A DNA stretch of 64,000 bases from Longimicrobiales bacterium (GTDB lineage Bacteria > Gemmatimonadota > Gemmatimonadetes > Longimicrobiales > Gaopeijiaceae): the NCBI GenBank assembly GCA_965218295.1, contig CBDCKN010000013.1:192001-256000 (forward strand). Reading direction: 5' to 3'. Made by a program: the position numbers and the translations under genes. Under the pieces are notes generated by a model. That model was not told where the DNA came from, made no database searches, and saw only the letters and a program-made list of their open reading frames with translations. This document shows, in pieces, positions 4,911 to 60,257 of the stretch (positions are counted from its first letter, which is position 1; the number at the start of each line of letters is the position of its first letter).

Positions 4911-5067
4911 CGTATGGGTTCCGATACGTTCCATAAACGTCCAATGAGAATCTATAACAAGAATAATGACAGTGATTTATAGAATATCCTAAGGGTTGCG
5001 AGGTCCCACTGCGTCCGCTAGATTCCCGTACATAACATACGATGTTTTATACGGGGACTACTACGAC

Positions 5068-6273
5068 GTGGATTTGCCCAAACACCGAGGTAGGCGCCCG
5101 CACAACGCACTCAGCGCGGCCTTCGTGCGCACTGCGAAACCCGGCTACTACTGTGACGGCAACGGCCTCTATCTGCGTGTGGACCGCTCCGGCGCGCGTC
5201 GATGGGAGCAGCGTCTGCGGATCCAGGGTCGAAACCGCACGCTGGGGCTGGGGGGCTGCCAGCTGGTATCGCTGGCCGAGGCGCGCGAGAAGGCGTTCAC
5301 GAACCGCAAGATTGCGCGCTCGGGCGGTGATCCGCGGACCGAGCGGCACAAGGTCCGGGACATACCCACGTTCGCCGAGGCGGCCGCCCGCGTTCTGGAA
5401 CAGAAGCGGCCCGGCTGGCGCAGCGGCAAGCATCCGGAGGACTGGATCTCCAGCCTGCGTGCCTATGCGTTCCCGGAACTCGGCCATCGGCCGGTCGGCG
5501 AGATAACGACAGCCGACATTCTGGCAGTTCTGACGCCGATCTGGCACGGCAAGCACGTGACCGCCCGACGGGTGCGCCAGCGCATCGGGGCGGTGATGAA
5601 GTGGGCGGTGGCGATGGGACTTCGACCGGACAACCCCGCCGGCGACGTGCTCGATCAAGCGCTTGGCCGGCATCGGGTTGTCGTCCGACACATGAGAGCA
5701 TTGCCTCACTCGGAGGTCGCGGGCGCGATCGAGGCGGTGCGGACTTCGGCGGCGAGCGTCGCGACCAGGCTCGCCTTCGAGTTCATGGTGCTGACGGCGT
5801 GCCGTTCCGGCGAGGTTCGCTTGGCGGGCTGGGATGAAATCGATCTCGAGGCGGGCGAGTGGACCATCCCCGGCGAGCGAATGAAGGCCCAGCGCCCGCA
5901 CAGGGTGCCGCTGTCCGGGCGCGCCGTGGAGATACTGGGCGAGGCGCGGACGCTCGGGGACGGCGGCGGTCTGGTCTTCCCGTCGTCGGAGGGCCGTCCA
6001 TTGTCCGGCAGCACCCTCTCCACCCTGCTTCGGGGACTGCGTATCGCGGCCGTGCCGCACGGCTTCCGGTCCAGCTTCAGGGATTGGTGCGGCGAGTGCT
6101 TCACCGCCCCCCGTGAAGTCGCCGAGGCCGCGTTGGCCCACGTGGTCCGCGACAAGGTGGAAGCGGCCTATGCGCGTTCGGACCTGTTCGAGCGCAGGCG
6201 CGTCCTGATGGACAATTGGGCTGCGTATCTGGCGGGCGAGCGTCTGGACCCGGAGGCCGAACCGGCTCGCTGA
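5068..6273 (+). CDS. P4-like tyrosine recombinase/integrase with Arm DNA-binding domain
   Basis: DGNGLYLRV arm domain; catalytic R (TACRSGE), HGFRSSFRDW, LAH, AYARSD; start GTG 5068 or TTG 5074. Confidence 0.93.
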   Translation: MDLPKHRGRRPHNALSAAFVRTAKPGYYCDGNGLYLRVDRSGARRWEQRLRIQGRNRTLGLGGCQLVSLAEAREKAFTNRKIARSGGDPRTERHKVRDIPTFAEAAARVLEQKRPGWRSGKHPEDWISSLRAYAFPELGHRPVGEITTADILAVLTPIWHGKHVTARRVRQRIGAVMKWAVAMGLRPDNPAGDVLDQALGRHRVVVRHMRALPHSEVAGAIEAVRTSAASVATRLAFEFMVLTACRSGEVRLAGWDEIDLEAGEWTIPGERMKAQRPHRVPLSGRAVEILGEARTLGDGGGLVFPSSEGRPLSGSTLSTLLRGLRIAAVPHGFRSSFRDWCGECFTAPREVAEAALAHVVRDKVEAAYARSDLFERRRVLMDNWAAYLAGERLDPEAEPAR

Positions 6274-6409
6274 TCCGCCGCGCTCGCAGTGTCGGCGGAC
6301 GAGTCCGTCAGGCGCTGAAGAGCAGGGGCGCGAAGGCTGGCTCACGACCCGTATGTGGACGCCCCCCGGGTTGGCAAGCCTGACTTCGAACCGAGGTTGG
6401 TGGCAATCA

Positions 6410-6560
6410 GGTCCGGTACTGTCGTATGTCCGGCCTCTTGATGCAGCCCTCGTTGGCTGCGGGCCCGTATGGTGTTCGTGAGATCGGATCCAAATCGTTA
6501 GGTCGGGCTCGGTGGCCCTTCGGGTCATCCTGGTGTTTCCGATCCCGTCTTCCAGACCGT
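6410..6560 (-). ncRNA. Putative seek/bridge RNA of the IS1111-type element
   Basis: Guide-like segments ATGACCCG (6528-6521) and CTAACG (6501-6496) match the target; ACATACGA (6429-6422) matches the circle junction; each pair brackets an internal hairpin. Boundaries approximate. Confidence 0.75.
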
Positions 6561-6643
6561 TTGCCCTTACTCGTTCTTGCGTCCTGCTGCCCACATCTCC
6601 CAGCAGCTTTCTCTGTTTGCGCTTCTCTCCTTTCATTGGCCGG

Positions 6644-7666
6644 TCAGGCGGCAGCGCGAACCCGATGGATCTCCTTCTTCGTGGTCAGCGCCCAGACCAT
6701 CCGCGCCGTCCTGTTGGCGAGCGCCACCGCGACCAGCATCTTCGGCTTGCGTGCCAGCATCCTGGCCAGCCACGGATCCGTGATCTCGCCGCGCCGGATC
6801 GCGTTTTGGACGACCGCCATGGCTCCCGTGATCAAGAGCCGCCGGAGATCGCGCTGGCCCATCTTCGATATCCTGCCCAGCCTCGGCTTGCCGCCGGTGG
6901 TGTGCTGCCGCGGCACAAGGCCGAGCCAGGCCGAGAAGTCGCGCCCGCGCCGGAAGCTCTCCATCGGCGGTGCGAAGGCCTGCAGTGCCATCGCGGTGAT
7001 CGGTCCGATTCCGGGGATTGTCATCAGCCGCGCCGTCTCTTCGCGCTCCCGTGCGCTCGCCCGGAGCTTCCTGTCGAATCCATCGATCTTCTCATCGAGC
7101 TCGTCGATCCGCCCGAGCAGCAGCCATCCCAGCTCGACGACCGCCTCCGGCAGGCCGACGTCCCCGTCTTCCAGCACCCAGGCCAGTTGCCCGATCCGGG
7201 CCCTGCCCTGCGGAGCAACAACTCCGAACTCGGCGAGGTGACCCCGAAGGGCATTGATCGTCTGTGTGCGCTGGCGCACCAGCAGGTCACGCGTGCGAAA
7301 GAGCATCCCCTGACCCTGCTGCGCTTCGGTCTTGACCGCCACGAAGCGCATGGTCGGACGCTGTGCGGCTTCCGAGATCGCCTCCGCGTCCGCCGCGTCG
7401 TTCTTCTGCCTCTTGACGAAGGGCTTCACGTAGATCGGGGGAACCAGCTTCACCTCGTGACCGAGGGCCACGATCTCCCGGCCCCAGTAGTGGGCGCCGG
7501 CGCATGCCTCCATCGCCACCGTGCAAGGCGGCTGCGCGGCGAGAAAACTCAGCAGCTTCCCGCGGCTCAGCTTCCTGCGGTACGCTACCGACCCGTTCGC
7601 CTTCGCCCCGTGTACCTGAAAGCTGCGCTTTGCCAGATCGATCCCGATGATGCTAACCTCCTCCAT
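6644..7666 (-). CDS. IS110 family DEDD recombinase/transposase
   Basis: IGIDLAK, MEAC, KNDAADAEAI, IPGIG, SAWLGLVPRQHTTGGK, KMGQRDLR. Confidence 0.95.
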   Translation of the reverse strand: MEEVSIIGIDLAKRSFQVHGAKANGSVAYRRKLSRGKLLSFLAAQPPCTVAMEACAGAHYWGREIVALGHEVKLVPPIYVKPFVKRQKNDAADAEAISEAAQRPTMRFVAVKTEAQQGQGMLFRTRDLLVRQRTQTINALRGHLAEFGVVAPQGRARIGQLAWVLEDGDVGLPEAVVELGWLLLGRIDELDEKIDGFDRKLRASAREREETARLMTIPGIGPITAMALQAFAPPMESFRRGRDFSAWLGLVPRQHTTGGKPRLGRISKMGQRDLRRLLITGAMAVVQNAIRRGEITDPWLARMLARKPKMLVAVALANRTARMVWALTTKKEIHRVRAAA

Positions 7667-7754
7667 TGGATGCCTCCTCCCTCAGATGGTCGATATCGCT
7701 CAGTACCATCTTGGCACATTGCGATGCCGCCGGGAGGGGGCGTCCACCCCATCG

Positions 7755-7865
7755 TTAGCAGTCATGAGCCAGCCTACCCCTTGGGGCCACGCTTCGCGGG
7801 TCCCCGGCAGGGGCTGGCGAGGGGTGGCTCCGCTTCCCCTTCGAACCCCCAGCTTCCCGCGCCGC
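7755..7865. other. oriT-like motif, right part (left hairpin arm at 6336-6349), interrupted by the IS1111-type element
   Basis: gtcatgagccagcctaccccttggggccacgcttcgcgggtccccggcaggggctggcg, conserved after three integrases. Confidence 0.7.
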
Positions 7866-20214: not shown

Positions 20215-21399
20215 ATGCGTAAACGACCCCTTACGGCCGCCTTCGTGGCGCGGGTGAAGACGCCGGGACGCTACGGCGACGGCGGGCTCGGCGGGCTCGG
20301 CCTGTACCTCCGCGTCCACCGGATGAAGTCCGGGCGCGTCTCCAAGTCCTGGGGCCAGCGCATTCGAGTGGCGGGGAAGCCCACCAACCTCGGACTGGGC
20401 TCGTACCCGGTCGTGACGCTCAGGGAGGCGAGGGAGAAGGCGCTGGAGTACAGGCGGGCAGTCCATTGGGGCCACGACCCGAGAGACGCGGGGGTTCCCA
20501 CCTTCGAGGCGGCCGTCGAGAATGTGATCGCGATCCACTCGCCGACCTGGAAGAACCCATCCCGCATGGCCGGGCAATGGCGGCAGACGCTGCGGGACTA
20601 CGCCGATCCGCGCATCGGCCGGAAACGCGTGAGCGAGATCGCGACGGCCGACGTGCTCGCCATCCTCAAGCCCATCTGGTCGAGCAAGCCCGCGACCGCG
20701 AGGGCCGTGCACCAGCGGATCGGCGCGGTGATGAAGTGGGCCGTCGCGAAGGGCTACCGGCCGGACAACCCGGCGGGGGACGCCATCGCCGCCGCACTGC
20801 CGCGCAACGGCAACGCCATCCGGCATCACAAGGCGCTCCCGCACGGCGAGGTGGCGGCGGCTCTGGCCGAGGTCCGCGACTCGGGGTCCCATGCCGGTGT
20901 CCGGCTGGCGCTCGAGTTCATGGTCCTGACGGCGACACGCTCGAACGAGGTCCGGGGCGCGACGTGGGACGAGTTCGATCACGATGTCTGGACCATTCCC
21001 GCCAGCCGCATGAAGGCGAAGCGCGAGCACCGGGTTCCCCTGTCGAGGCGGGCCTTGGAGATCCTTGAGGAAGCCCGGAAGCGCCACGACGAGGGCGGGA
21101 ACGTGTTCCGGGGCGCGAAGGGAGGGAGGATCAACGCCTCGATGTTCAGCGGCCTGCTCCGGCGTCTCGGCATCGGGGGAACGCCCCACGGGATGAGGTC
21201 CTCGTTCCGCGACTGGTGCTCGGAGACGGGCGTGGCGCGCGAGGTGGCCGAAGCGGCGCTGGCCCACGTCGTGAAGAACAAGGTCGAGGCCGCCTACGCC
21301 CGCTCGGACCTGCTGGACCGGAGGCGCGAGGTCATGGAGGCCTGGGCCGACTATCTCGCCAGCGAGCGTCGAGACACCAAGGCCGGACCGATCCGTTGA
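20215..21399 (+). CDS. P4-like tyrosine integrase
   Basis: Arm domain GLYLRV; TATRSNE, HGMRSSFRDW, LAH, AYARSD; about 25 substitutions in 394 aa versus 43605-44789. Confidence 0.94.
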   Translation: MRKRPLTAAFVARVKTPGRYGDGGLGGLGLYLRVHRMKSGRVSKSWGQRIRVAGKPTNLGLGSYPVVTLREAREKALEYRRAVHWGHDPRDAGVPTFEAAVENVIAIHSPTWKNPSRMAGQWRQTLRDYADPRIGRKRVSEIATADVLAILKPIWSSKPATARAVHQRIGAVMKWAVAKGYRPDNPAGDAIAAALPRNGNAIRHHKALPHGEVAAALAEVRDSGSHAGVRLALEFMVLTATRSNEVRGATWDEFDHDVWTIPASRMKAKREHRVPLSRRALEILEEARKRHDEGGNVFRGAKGGRINASMFSGLLRRLGIGGTPHGMRSSFRDWCSETGVAREVAEAALAHVVKNKVEAAYARSDLLDRRREVMEAWADYLASERRDTKAGPIR

Positions 21400-21402
21400 C
21401 GC

Positions 21403-21510
21403 GCTGGCTCATGACCCGTTACCTGTCATGAGCCAGCTTACCCTTTGGGGCCACGCTTCGCGGGTCCCCGGCAGGGGCTGGCGGGGGGCTGTGCCCCCTC
21501 TGACCCCCCC
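21403..21510. other. Putative oriT (ColE1/MOB-HEN-like nic CTGG^CTCA) with 13-bp hairpin; empty IS1111 target
   Basis: gctggctcatgac-ccgttacct-gtcatgagccagc followed by the conserved block; lies directly upstream of a mobC fragment. Confidence 0.72.
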
Positions 21511-21539
21511 AACGGCAACGGCACATCATGGGCGCTGGA

Positions 21540-21660
21540 CGCGACGTGTGGGTGCAGATCCGCGCCAGCGAGGTGGAGCGCGCCGCGTGGCACGCCAAGG
21601 CACGCTCCGCAGGGTTGACGCTGTCGGATCTGGTGCGCCGGTCGGTTGGCCGGGGTAGCT
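21540..21660 (+). pseudogene. mobC: MobC-like relaxosome ribbon-helix-helix protein fragment
   Basis: RDVWVQIRASEVERAAWHAKARSAGLTLSDLVRRSVGRV. Confidence 0.7.
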
Positions 21661-21971
21661 GTGTTCTAGCGGGAACCTGAACGGAGTACCGGGCGACTCC
21701 GAGGTCCCGCAGAAGGGAGGATTCCAGATGCCCAGGGGGACGGGCAGGATTGGCAGCTACTTACGGCGATCTTGCGTCTCAACGTCGTATCTTCCGAGGA
21801 GGCGGTCCCACGATGATGATTCTCTGATACAGCCTTCAAGCGGCGAGAGGCCACCAGCATCCTGGGGCAACGTCAAGCCGTTGACACCGTTTAGCCTTTG
21901 TGCTAGCCCGTGTCACATTCGTCCGGACGGGGTGAGCGTGATCCCCCTGGGGGCGTTTGGGCCGTAGACCC

Positions 21972-43604: not shown

Positions 43605-44789
43605 ATGCGTAAACGACCCCTTACGGCCGCCTTCGTGGCGCGAGTGAAGACGCCGGGACGCTACGGCGACGGCGGGCTCGGCGGGCTCGGCCTGTACCTC
43701 CGCGTCCACCGGATGAAGTCCGGGCGCGTCTCCAAGTCCTGGGGCCAGCGCATTCGAGTGGCGGGGAAGCCCACCAATCTCGGACTGGGCTCGTACCCGG
43801 TCGTGACGCTCAGGGAGGCGAGAGAGAAGGCGCTGGAGAACAGGCGGGCAGTCCATTGGGGCCACGACCCGAGAGACGCGGGGGTTCCCACATTCGAGGC
43901 GGCCGTCGAGAAGGTGATGGCGATCCACTCGCCGACCTGGAAGAACCCATCCCGCATGGCCGGGCAGTGGCGGCAGACGCTGCGGGACTACGCCCATCCG
44001 CGCATCGGCCGGAAGCGCGTGAGCGAGATCGCGACGGCCGACGTGCTCGCCATCCTCAAGCCCATCTGGTCGAGCAAGCCTGCGACCGCGAGGGCCGTGC
44101 ACCAGCGGATCGGCGCGGTGATGAAGTGGGCCGTCGCGAAGGGCTACCGGCCGGACAACCCGGCGGGGGACGCCATCGCCGCCGCGCTGCCGCGCAACGG
44201 CAACGCCACCCGGCATCACAAGGCGCTCCCGCACGGCGAGGTGGCGGCGGCTCTGGCCGAGGTCCGCAACTCGGAGTCCCATGCCGGTGTCCGGCTGGCG
44301 CTCGAGTTCATGGTTCTGACCGCGACACGCTCGAACGAGGTCCGGGGCGCGGCGTCGGACGAGATCGAGCGCGACGTCTGGACCATTCCCGCCAGCCGCA
44401 TGAAGGCGAAGCGCGAGCATCGGGTTCCCCTGTCGGGGCGGGTCCTGGAGATCCTTGAGGAAGCCCGGAAGCACCACGACGACGGCGGGATCGTCTTTCG
44501 GGGCGCGAAGGGAGGCGGCATCAACGCCTCGATGTTCAGCGGCTTGCTCCGGCATCTCGGCATCGAGGGAACGCCTCACGGGATGAGGTCCTCGTTCCGC
44601 GACTGGTGTTCGGAGACGGGCGTGGCGCGCGAGGTGGCCGAAGCGGCGCTGGCCCACGTCGTGAAGAACAGGGTCGAGGCCGCGTACGCCCGCTCGGACC
44701 TGCTGGACCGGAGGCGCGAGGTCATGCAGGCTTGGGCCGACTATCTCGCCAGCGAGCGTCGAGACCCGGAGGCCGAACCGATCCGTTGA
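43605..44789 (+). CDS. P4-like tyrosine integrase (paralog of 20215-21399)
   Basis: Same catalytic motifs, 394 aa. Confidence 0.94.
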   Translation: MRKRPLTAAFVARVKTPGRYGDGGLGGLGLYLRVHRMKSGRVSKSWGQRIRVAGKPTNLGLGSYPVVTLREAREKALENRRAVHWGHDPRDAGVPTFEAAVEKVMAIHSPTWKNPSRMAGQWRQTLRDYAHPRIGRKRVSEIATADVLAILKPIWSSKPATARAVHQRIGAVMKWAVAKGYRPDNPAGDAIAAALPRNGNATRHHKALPHGEVAAALAEVRNSESHAGVRLALEFMVLTATRSNEVRGAASDEIERDVWTIPASRMKAKREHRVPLSGRVLEILEEARKHHDDGGIVFRGAKGGGINASMFSGLLRHLGIEGTPHGMRSSFRDWCSETGVAREVAEAALAHVVKNRVEAAYARSDLLDRRREVMQAWADYLASERRDPEAEPIR

Positions 44790-44792
44790 AGC

Positions 44793-44900
44793 GCTGGCAC
44801 ATGACCGGTTAGAGGTCATGAGCCAGCCTACCCTTTGGGGCCACGCTTCGCGGGTCCCCGGCAGGGGCTGGCGAGGGTGGCTCCGCCCCCTTCGATCCCC
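44793..44900. other. Putative oriT hairpin plus conserved block
   Basis: gctggcacatgacc-ggttaga-ggtcatgagccagc-ctaccctttggggccacgcttcgcggg. Confidence 0.7.
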
Positions 44901-49110: not shown

Positions 49111-50118
49111 TTAGAGAGCAATCTCCTGTGTAGTGAGGGATGGGGTGGGAGGATTGATCCAGACGGCCTCCGGGAGTGGTTTAGGCTTCGGCTCACCGGA
49201 GACGAAGCGCTCGGGATGAGCGGCCCATGCCTCACGGAGCACGGCCTTCCTGCAGGCGATGATCCGATCGGCGTGACCGAAGTGGACCTGTTCGGGGGTC
49301 AGCATCGAGATGCCGCCATGGCGGTGCTCGGCATTATACCAACGGAAGAACGAGCGACAGAAGGTCTTGGCTTGCCCCTGATCCCCGAACCGGCCGGGAA
49401 ACGAGGGATGGTACTTCAAGGTCTTGAACTGAGCCTCGGAGAACGGATTGTCATCCGAGACCTGGGGTCGGCCCAACGAGCGGGTCACGCCGAGATCGGC
49501 GAGTAGTTGAGCCGTGCATTGGCTCGTCATCGGAGCCCCTCGATCGGAATGCAGGGTCAGGAGGTGGGGCTGGACGCCATGCTTCAAGCAACTCTGCTGG
49601 ATCAGCCGGCTGGCCAGGGCAGAGTTCTCCCGATCCGCCACCATCCATCCCACGACGTAGCGGCTGAAGATGTCCAGGATCACGTAGAGGTAGAAGTAAC
49701 TCCACTTCTTCGGCCCCAGCAGCCGGGTGATATCCCAGGACCAGACCTGGTTCGGGCCCCTCGCCATCAACTCGGGCTTCTGGTATTTGGGATGACTCCG
49801 CTGCGCTCGACGCTCCTGAACCGGCACCTGGGAAGCCAGAACGCGATACATCGTACGCTCGCTGCACAGGTAGACGTCCTCGTCGAGCAGCGTCGCCACC
49901 ACCTCGGCTGGGGACCGGTCCACGAACCGCTCCGAACACAGGGTGTCGAAAATCTTGTCCCGCTCCCTCTCACTTAAGGCCCGGGCGGGGGTCGGGCGGG
50001 GCTGCTGATGCCCGGTCGATGCACTCCGACGACGGTAGAACGTGGCTCGCGGCACCCTGAGCGCATCGCACGCGGGCTTCACCCCTACGTGCTTGGCTAG
50101 CTCCTGGGTCGCCTTCAT
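49111..50118 (-). CDS. IS3-like OrfB DDE transposase
   Basis: PNQVWSWDIT, LHSDRG, DDNPFSEAQFKTLK. Confidence 0.93.
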   Translation of the reverse strand: MKATQELAKHVGVKPACDALRVPRATFYRRRSASTGHQQPRPTPARALSERERDKIFDTLCSERFVDRSPAEVVATLLDEDVYLCSERTMYRVLASQVPVQERRAQRSHPKYQKPELMARGPNQVWSWDITRLLGPKKWSYFYLYVILDIFSRYVVGWMVADRENSALASRLIQQSCLKHGVQPHLLTLHSDRGAPMTSQCTAQLLADLGVTRSLGRPQVSDDNPFSEAQFKTLKYHPSFPGRFGDQGQAKTFCRSFFRWYNAEHRHGGISMLTPEQVHFGHADRIIACRKAVLREAWAAHPERFVSGEPKPKPLPEAVWINPPTPSLTTQEIAL

Positions 50119-58803: not shown

Positions 58804-59253
58804 ATGCTGAGACACCGAGAGAGAATGAAAGAGAATGGAATAGCCCCACCAACCTGGGACGGTAAGCGAAGCGCGGCAGCTCCTGCGGACTCGGAGGTGG
58901 TAGATAGGCCGCTGCGCCGGCGGTTCGCTCCGTCGTACAAGCTGCGGATCGTCGAAGAAGCGGACCGGTGCACGGAGCCCGGAGAGGTTGGCCGACTCCT
59001 ACGGCGGGAGGGCTTGTACTCGTCGCACCTGACGACATGGCGCAAGGCGGCGCATAGCGGGTCCCTGAAAGCGCTGTCGAAGAAACGAGGCCGTAAGCGC
59101 GAGCGCAATCCGCTGGAGGAGAAGGTGCGCAAGCTGGAGCGCGAGAACACTCGCCTCGAGAAGGAGCTCCAGAAGGCGCACTTGATCATCGACGTCCAGG
59201 GAAAAGTTGCAGGGCTGCTGGGATTGAGCCTCGAGGACGGGACGAACTCATGA
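58804..59253 (+). CDS. IS3-like OrfA
   Basis: Protein identical to 50115-50564. Confidence 0.9.
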   Translation: MLRHRERMKENGIAPPTWDGKRSAAAPADSEVVDRPLRRRFAPSYKLRIVEEADRCTEPGEVGRLLRREGLYSSHLTTWRKAAHSGSLKALSKKRGRKRERNPLEEKVRKLERENTRLEKELQKAHLIIDVQGKVAGLLGLSLEDGTNS

Positions 59254-60257
59254 AGGCGACCCAGGAGCTAGCCAAGCACGTAGGGGTGAAGCCCGCGTGC
59301 GATGCGCTCAGGGTGCCGCGAGCCACGTTCTACCGTCGTCGGAGGCCATCGACCGGGCATCAGCAGCCCCGCCCGACCCCCGCCCGGGCCTTAAGCGAGA
59401 AGGAACGAGACAAGGTCTTCGACACGCTGTGTTCGGAGCGGTTCGTGGACCGGTCCCCAGCCGAGGTGGTGGCGACGCTGCTCGACGAGGACGTCTACCT
59501 GTGCAGCGAGCGTACGATGTATCGCGTTCTGGCTTCCCAGGTGCCGGTTCAGGAGCGTCGAGCGCAGCGGAGTCATCCCAAATACCAGAAACCCGAGTTG
59601 ATGGCGAGGGGCCCGAACCAGGTCTGGTCCTGGGATATCACCCGGCTGCTGGGGCCGAAGAAGTGGAGTTACTTCTACCTCTACGTGATCCTGGACATCT
59701 TCAGCCGCTACGTCGTGGGATGGATGGTGGCGGATCGGGAGAACTCTGCCCTGGCCAGCCGGCTGATCCAGCAGAGTTGCTTGAAGCATGGCGTCCAGCC
59801 CCACCTCCTGACCCTGCATTCCGATCGAGGGGCTCCGATGACGAGCCAATGCACGGCTCAACTACTCGCCGATCTCGGCGTGACCCGCTCGTTGGGCCGA
59901 CCCCAGGTCTCGGATGACAATCCGTTCTCCGAGGCTCAGTTCAAGACCTTGAAGTACCATCCCTCGTTTCCCGGCCGGTTCGGGGATCAGGGGCAAGCCA
60001 AGACCTTCTGTCGCTCGTTCTTCCGTTGGTATAATGCCGAGCACCGCCATGGCGGCATCTCGATGCTGACCCCCGAACAGGTCCACTTCGGTCACGCCGA
60101 TCGGATCATCGCCTGCAGGAAGGCCGTGCTCCGTGAGGCATGGGCCGCTCATCCCGAGCGCTTCGTCTCCGGTGAGCCGAAGCCTAAACCACTCCCGGAG
60201 GCCGTCTGGATCAATCCTCCCACCCCATCCCTCACTACACAGGAGATTGCTCTCTAA
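59250..60257 (+). CDS. IS3-like OrfB DDE transposase
   Basis: Near-identical to 49111-50118. Confidence 0.93.
   Translation: MKATQELAKHVGVKPACDALRVPRATFYRRRRPSTGHQQPRPTPARALSEKERDKVFDTLCSERFVDRSPAEVVATLLDEDVYLCSERTMYRVLASQVPVQERRAQRSHPKYQKPELMARGPNQVWSWDITRLLGPKKWSYFYLYVILDIFSRYVVGWMVADRENSALASRLIQQSCLKHGVQPHLLTLHSDRGAPMTSQCTAQLLADLGVTRSLGRPQVSDDNPFSEAQFKTLKYHPSFPGRFGDQGQAKTFCRSFFRWYNAEHRHGGISMLTPEQVHFGHADRIIACRKAVLREAWAAHPERFVSGEPKPKPLPEAVWINPPTPSLTTQEIAL

Follow-up and report, generated by a model that had tools for sequence, protein, structure and literature searches.

The IS1111-group insertion sequence described here lies in the hairpin of what is likely a ColE1-type (MOBP5) transfer origin (oriT), and we consider it probable that its predicted bridge RNA spells a 14-base word in this hairpin, that its insertion was RNA-guided and that several related elements, this one among them, have a common mobilisation module as their target. 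Direct support comes from the anatomy of the element, from the correspondence between guides and flanks across homologs, from the oriT-like context, and, in two genomes, from an occupancy of target sites in agreement with the guide. Unless a contig is named, coordinates refer to the window, that is, the whole stretch of 64,000 nucleotides that was analysed; the genome to which it belongs is termed G000. The features are collected in Table 1.

Table 1. Features of the insertion sequence, its target and related insertions
Feature	Position	Strand	Remarks or basis
P4-like tyrosine integrase of the host island	4996..6273	+	no mobC or relaxase gene after its oriT copy
Distal arm of target hairpin plus core CG	6336..6351	+	
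IS1111-group insertion sequence	6352..7754	-	1403 bp, one copy of the CG core counted
Right sub-terminal inverted repeat, 12 bp	6355..6366	+	3 bp from end; sequence
-35 box TTGCCA of predicted circle-junction promoter	6372..6377	-	sequence
Core of predicted bridge/seek RNA (loop binding the target, followed by loop binding the donor)	6407..6552	-	consensus fold of homologs
Donor guide ACATACG	6423..6429	-	right end plus core
Short donor guide CCAT	6469..6472	-	pairs with ATGG opening the left end, core excluded
3' target guide CTAACG	6496..6501	-	matches 7753-7758 side
5' target guide ATGACCCG	6521..6528	-	7 matches and one G:U to 6344-6351 side
DEDD bridge recombinase, 340 aa	6644..7666	-	Pfam DEDD_Tnp_IS110 and Transposase_20; PDB matches ISCro4 and IS621
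Left sub-terminal inverted repeat, 12 bp	7736..7747	-	7 bp from end including core; sequence
Nic-proximal hairpin arm	7755..7773	+	putative nic octamer CTGGCTCA on minus strand, 7765-7772
Conserved 50-bp oriT block	7773..7824	+	14 genomic copies, 7 of which precede mobC
Empty hairpin variant, 3 of 35 mismatches	21403..21437	+	
Empty hairpin variant, 5 of 35 mismatches, core GG	44793..44827	+	after integrase 43605-44789
L094 and L106/L102			insertion at nic-10/-9

The boundaries of the element are sharply defined. From left to right, the sequence consists of the hairpin flank 6336-6349, a CG core at 6350-6351, the element, a second CG at 7753-7754 and the flank 7755-7775. According to the initial annotation, removal of 6352-7754 restores an intact hairpin, and the 35-mer left by this excision is indeed present elsewhere in G000 as an exact, empty copy (G000:C3:555573-555607). 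The two sites in the window that had been named as empty copies of the same target, 21403-21437 and 44793-44827, are both variants of it, with 3 and 5 mismatches of 35, respectively. The same empty allele, recognised as a skip of 1403 nt from 6349 to 7753, also occurs in contigs of four out of four public runs from four studies, whose source organisms are probably related.

The intact element has the complete anatomy of the IS1111 group, comprising the domains of the recombinase, sub-terminal repeats, a long right and a short left end, and guides that track the flanks. Its non-coding ends measure 292 nt on the right, where the predicted guide RNA is encoded, and 88 nt on the left. In this group, the right inverted repeat lies 3 bp from the end, as is the case here. 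Two reports on these elements give sub-terminal inverted repeats of 7-17 bp that are located 7 bp from the left end (PMC11208160, PMC11187229). When the two ends are joined, the predicted promoter TTGCCA-18 nt-TACGAT would arise at the circle junction, just as had been proposed; the spacing was counted from the sequence, and of 94 distinct junctions, 88 have a TTG 15-19 nt ahead of the hexamer. No circle junction is present among 15 of the 18 joints in the public-run contigs, RNA support is absent from the same contigs, and the single RNA run led to one contig with a different guide; as run data were examined as contigs only, this absence of circles and RNA is uninformative.

The recombinase contains both IS110 domains, the DEDD RuvC-like domain and Transposase_20, and its DEDD tetrad consists of D10, E53, D90 and D93, in agreement with the original assignment of the element to IS1111, which the layout of the ends likewise bears out. 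At the position where IS621 and ISCro4 carry the catalytic serine, it has Thr256-Thr257 followed by GG, without any adjacent serine, and T257 aligns to the serine of ISCro4. Among 169 distinct homologs, the pair at the catalytic loop is TT in 27, ST in 104 and SS in 35 cases, and TT elements are found as identical multi-copy sets. Threonine possibly serves as the nucleophile in this recombinase, a point on which our literature search yielded nothing.

The right ends of 36 homologs share a common two-module fold with 24 pairs, 12 of which show two-sided changes. None of 500 shuffles equalled the observed values and slid controls scored far lower, with both controls being inflated by the derivation of the fold from the very alignment on which it was tested. 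The fold of the whole right end as a single sequence is weak (z -1.54), and only the comparative fold is informative. Within the predicted RNA, the guides are found on the minus strand exactly where they had been placed initially, and the single mismatch to the target is, by sequence, a G:U pair. The check that the initial annotation had proposed, covariation of guides and targets across homologs, gave a clear outcome: exact matches between a guide and its own flank average 6.2 and 6.1 nt, compared to 3.0 and 2.7 nt for cross pairs, and none of 5000 permutations equalled these means. Matches of at least 6 nt occur in 49 and 48 of the 74 distinct target loops (cross pairs, 2.8% and 2.6%), which were drawn from 214 transposase-bearing loci, the others being repeats or loci without end, flank or anchor. 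A set of 33 distinct elements, for which 37 of 81 loci could be used, led to the same guide-flank outcome. The register of the core varies among elements, falling on position 8, 9 or 10 of the target guide.

The donor loop had been described as two segments, the second matching the circle junction well and the first in part. The second segment stands, as it matches the right end plus core, and across homologs this 3' donor guide matches over at least 6 nt in 29 of 33 distinct elements (cross pairs, 13.6%). The first segment is best read as a guide of 4-5 nt, CCAT, that does not include the core, which accounts for the partial match. A 7-mer including the core was rejected, its last three bases not tracking core changes. 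The CCAT segment shows slight covariation one base beyond its end, and the covariation in its favour is weak because the segment itself is nearly invariant. Taken over all guides, it is their covariation with the flanks across homologs that supports the reading of the non-coding end as a bridge RNA.

The target was assigned to an oriT in the initial annotation, and a nic octamer of ColE1 type that is found ahead of mobC and relaxase genes argues for this assignment. The octamer in the hairpin arm, CTGGCTCA, is identical in 7 of 8 positions to that of ColE1, and in sister islands it lies upstream of mobC and on the opposite strand, as it does in ColE1 and in the Aeromonas plasmid NZ_CP028562. 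In PMC5703827, CTGGCTTA is named as the nic-containing octamer of ColE1. Seven of the 14 copies of the oriT block are followed by mobC, three by a full mobC plus relaxase gene, and one copy stands in the order integrase, hairpin, mobC, relaxase. The oriT family thus has linked mobC, relaxase and mobD genes, which are absent beside the window's own copy. For a close homologous pair of proteins from genome G001, Pfam returns NikA/MobC and Relaxase, and homologs from genome G002 add further Pfam support. The G001 relaxase matches 3527 plasmid records, 3361 of which are typed as mobilisable; it scores 47-60% against its best 15 plasmid matches, most of them beside an annotated mobC, and by this similarity it is a putative member of the MOBP5 family. 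In the Methylomarinovum plasmid, which has the closest relaxase, no CTGGCTY motif lies 500 nt or less from mobC. The conserved block at 7773-7824 together with the hairpin likely represents a ColE1-type (MOBP5) transfer origin. A reading of the hairpin as an attC site was rejected on length.

If the cut is placed after CTGG within the octamer, which we take to be its position, the core of the element corresponds to nic+15/+16. Just before this core, at nic+12 to +14, TA(A/G) is present in 31 of 32 oriT copies from three genomes (G000-G002). Many oriT copies are devoid of a long hairpin, and the TA at nic+12/+13 is retained whether or not a hairpin forms. The hairpin at 21403-21437 follows an integrase gene (20215-21399) and precedes a truncated mobC/NikA-like gene (21528-21668). 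From 21669 onward in the window and near position 555571 of contig C3 in G000, the same truncated mobC and downstream reading frames stand behind different hairpin variants, which suggests exchange of modules between islands. As the island in the window has no mob genes and a search of G000 (90.7% complete) with two Pfam families found no coupling protein or VirB4-type ATPase, its mobilisation would need help in trans.

In G000, where the guide reads ATGACCCG, the element is present in two identical copies, both in the target hairpin. The target word occurs at three sites, all of which are such hairpins, two filled and the one on contig C3 empty; GACCCGTTAG occurs once in the 3.57-Mb genome, within the empty oriT hairpin. 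Since the two filled copies have identical flanks over 170 bp on the upstream and 49 bp on the downstream side, and no more than 77-97 of 100 columns are shared by the neighbouring integrases, they may go back to one insertion that was spread by homologous exchange. Among 60 relatives, with six candidates scored per genome, full-length matches to the element were restricted to two genomes of the same genus. Genome G002 contains three copies of a sister element (94% nucleotide and 92% amino acid identity), none of them in an oriT. The 5' guide of the sister, ATGACCGC, differs from that of the window element at 4 of 11 positions. The first sister copy has a perfect guide match at the start of an MbeD/MobD gene in a mob operon, which it breaks at the third codon (L082:1297-1500) in a region that also codes for the relaxase in another frame. 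Copies 2 and 3 occupy imperfect sites in unrelated sequence outside oriT, and target specificity is therefore loose.

The hairpin word and the mobD-start word are one G apart. None of the four mobD-start words in G000 is filled, and in G002 the single mobD-start word is filled and the single hairpin word empty. Occupancy follows the guide in both genomes, albeit in small numbers. Because a 92%-identical sister sits at the mobD start and at two unrelated sites, targeting of the oriT hairpin is a property of this guide and not of the lineage. In a tree of 42 of the proteins, the window and G002 elements are sisters (support 99/86), and oriT-sited elements are interspersed with others, L100 standing on a long branch. 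At 6520-6529, the sister form of the guide is the sole form in runs X1, X4 and X7 and the window form was seen in one low-depth contig of run X9, which hints at the hairpin guide being less common than the other and perhaps derived. A metagenome collection contained no match to the exact window-type target loop.

The transposase gene of L010 is followed on its 3' side by a tandem repeat made of the donor-loop half and the right end of an IS1111 element. As remnants of related IS1111 elements, G000 contains a lone left end with a different flank (G000:C13:493728-493780), a broken right end (G000:C3:549056-549197) and a short, degraded piece near a mobD start (G000:C15:553238-553277). In the same genome, 18 tRNA genes are clustered on a stretch of 4 kb (G000:C9:276539-280522), and in the window a 335-residue rve-domain transposase is encoded in two inverted copies (49111-50118 and 59250-60257) that could form a composite element.

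The single-G distance between the two words, the predominance of the sister guide in the runs, the lack of the exact target loop in the metagenome collection, and a tract of identity that runs beyond the element ends are all in keeping with accidental retargeting. In that scenario, the lineage is directed to the mobD start or to no particular site, a small change in the guide produced a match with the hairpin loop by chance, a single insertion gave rise to one further copy by recombination, and the location in an oriT brings no advantage and was never selected. We consider such an accident unlikely, as three unlike guide sets also lie within 10 nt of such a nic, and a rate of 2 in 9 close guide sets, the window's own excluded, compared to a motif background of 0.86% is a recurrence that it does not easily explain. 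IS1111 elements of 61% identity with different guides are found in G001 and G002, and in two of three copies (L094 and L106/L102) their core lies at nic-10/-9 of a second oriT subtype; the third copy (L100) has the same right junction and an unrelated left flank. Run X9 also shows a nic-10/-9 junction. A further element, L138 (87% identical), is inserted at nic-3/-2 with matching guides, one of its flanks amounting to 4 bases only, and L006 (80% identical) is inserted at nic-10/-9 of an origin assigned by motif alone. Ten guide sets are available for elements of at least 78% identity; three are at a nic, one matches mobD and six are elsewhere, the nic motif occurring in 0.86% of random 32-nt windows.

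Guides scored by themselves against 45 oriT 75-mers did not separate these from shuffled oriTs, and a right-end-plus-nic pattern found two matches in 301 genomes of the class, both of which lack a transposase and were discarded as chance. Of 113 distinct two-flank sites, the nic motif flagged two, L064 and L194; neither is in an oriT context, and such a number is in line with the background rate. Relatives of the element have repeatedly entered conserved repeats of two further sets (L233, L237, L240 and L243; L012-L014 and L230), which may be the ends of IS21-family and IS66-family elements, and a third conserved repeat (L002, L003, L227, L231, L239 and L242). At L001, insertion site and guide include ATCCTG in the right flank, which resembles the RP4/R64-type nick motif; no mob gene was found near L001 with queries from the present genome.

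A second alternative is that the hairpin downstream of the integrase is a terminator or a REP-like repeat and serves as a target because stem-loops of this kind are abundant, just as REPs are targets of ISPpu10 and ISPa11, with the neighbouring oriT being incidental. An ATGAC-type hairpin directly follows the integrase in 6 of 14 copies, the absence of a long hairpin from many oriT copies would fit as well, and a preprint reports that a target stem-loop raises integration of ISPpu10 (bioRxiv 10.64898/2026.03.19.712850). We nevertheless regard this alternative as quite improbable: one hairpin arm is the nic octamer itself, the near-universal TA at nic+12/+13 is kept regardless of the hairpin, and hairpins of other sequence occupy the same place without an adjoining integrase. 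That the second copy is an artefact of assembly or polishing, which would reduce the case to a single observation, is scarcely credible, since the complete identity of about 1,660 bp (100%, flanks counted) and the lack of a spanning piece among the public contig pieces listed are set against two islands (C13 and C14) that differ throughout the integrase and past the oriT block, and the guide-target match and the evidence from homologs are independent of this copy.

For an IS1111-group element guided into a ColE1-type oriT, the following course of events can be envisaged by analogy with IS621 and ISEc11. The element would excise as a circle, the promoter formed at the circle junction would drive recombinase and RNA, and the two loops of the RNA would pair with target and donor, with strand exchange taking place at the CG core. 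Insertion at nic+15 would split the hairpin and spare the nick, the whole 5' side and the TA(A/G) at +12 to +14. Transfer is led by the relaxase with a polarity that would put an element at nic+15 at the front of the transferred strand. Provided that relaxase and conjugation machine are supplied in trans and that the origin is still functional with them, the element would be among the first DNA transferred, and we infer that it may benefit from hitch-hiking on this transfer. More tentatively, and with clearly less than even confidence, we picture a guild of IS1111 elements that have been re-aimed repeatedly at one ColE1-type module, at nic-10, the nick, nic+15 and the mobD start, where a change of a few guide bases and a one-base shift in register would switch between the last two, and where the nic+15 form would represent RNA-guided hitch-hiking as leading DNA by means of a recombinase with a threonine nucleophile.

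With ISEc11, ISKpn4, ISPst6 and ISPa11 (PMC11187229, PMC11208160), it shares the DEDD recombinase, sub-terminal repeats, a short left and a long right end, a guide RNA downstream of the gene, a circle-junction promoter (predicted in our case) and the lack of target duplication beyond the core; unlike in that group, a ColE1-type transfer origin serves as the target, or a mobD start in the case of the sister. The term oriT does not occur in the main text of either report. IS621 and ISCro4 (PMC11208158; PDB 8wt6, 9t56) have the DEDD tetrad, a two-loop RNA with target and donor guides and a 2-nt core in common with our element, but belong to the IS110 group, with the IS621 RNA at the left end, and are remotely similar (E 3e-8 and 8e-12); moreover, one donor guide here comprises 4-5 nt, and the 5' target guide occurs in three registers. 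Like IS4321/IS5075 in Tn21 inverted repeats and the IS1111 elements in attC sites, the element parasitises a conserved cis-acting site of a mobile element, whereas those sites are transposon ends and integron cassette sites, not conjugation origins. The target has in common with that of ISPpu10 (bioRxiv 10.64898/2026.03.19.712850) a location within or next to a DNA stem-loop, a possible aid to recognition, but ISPpu10 is directed to a REP, and as the sister of our element uses targets other than the oriT hairpin, a structural requirement is not evident. The mobilisation module agrees with that of ColE1/MOBP5 (MOBHEN) plasmids in that the nic octamer precedes mobC and is read from the other strand, and in the order mobC, mobA, overlapping mobD (PMC5703827, PMC3632715, PMC5935869); it differs in being chromosomal, multi-copy and integrase-linked, in having a hairpin 3' of nic and in the loss of mob genes from many copies. 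A search for IS110 or IS1111 elements in connection with oriT, nic or relaxase, with supplements, ISfinder and subscription journals outside its scope, retrieved no paper on such a target class; one bridge-RNA preprint mentions oriT several times, as a means of detecting plasmid cargo. We conclude that the mechanism is known and the target class is new; the novel aspects are the sister pair and a ColE1-type module in which different guides have led to insertions at four positions.

If this reading is correct, RNA-guided insertion sequences are parasites of, or brakes on, mobilisable elements. A form that splits the nick should kill transfer, and a form that spares it could be carried along, a difference of relevance to how such elements pass from one species to another. 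With proteins that are 92% identical, guides a few bases apart and reciprocal occupancy, the sister pair amounts to a natural guide swap; it exhibits natural reprogramming of a bridge RNA in a form open to direct tests. Elements of this compact kind, inserting next to a widespread oriT, are also possible tools with which mobilisable DNA could be tagged or disabled.
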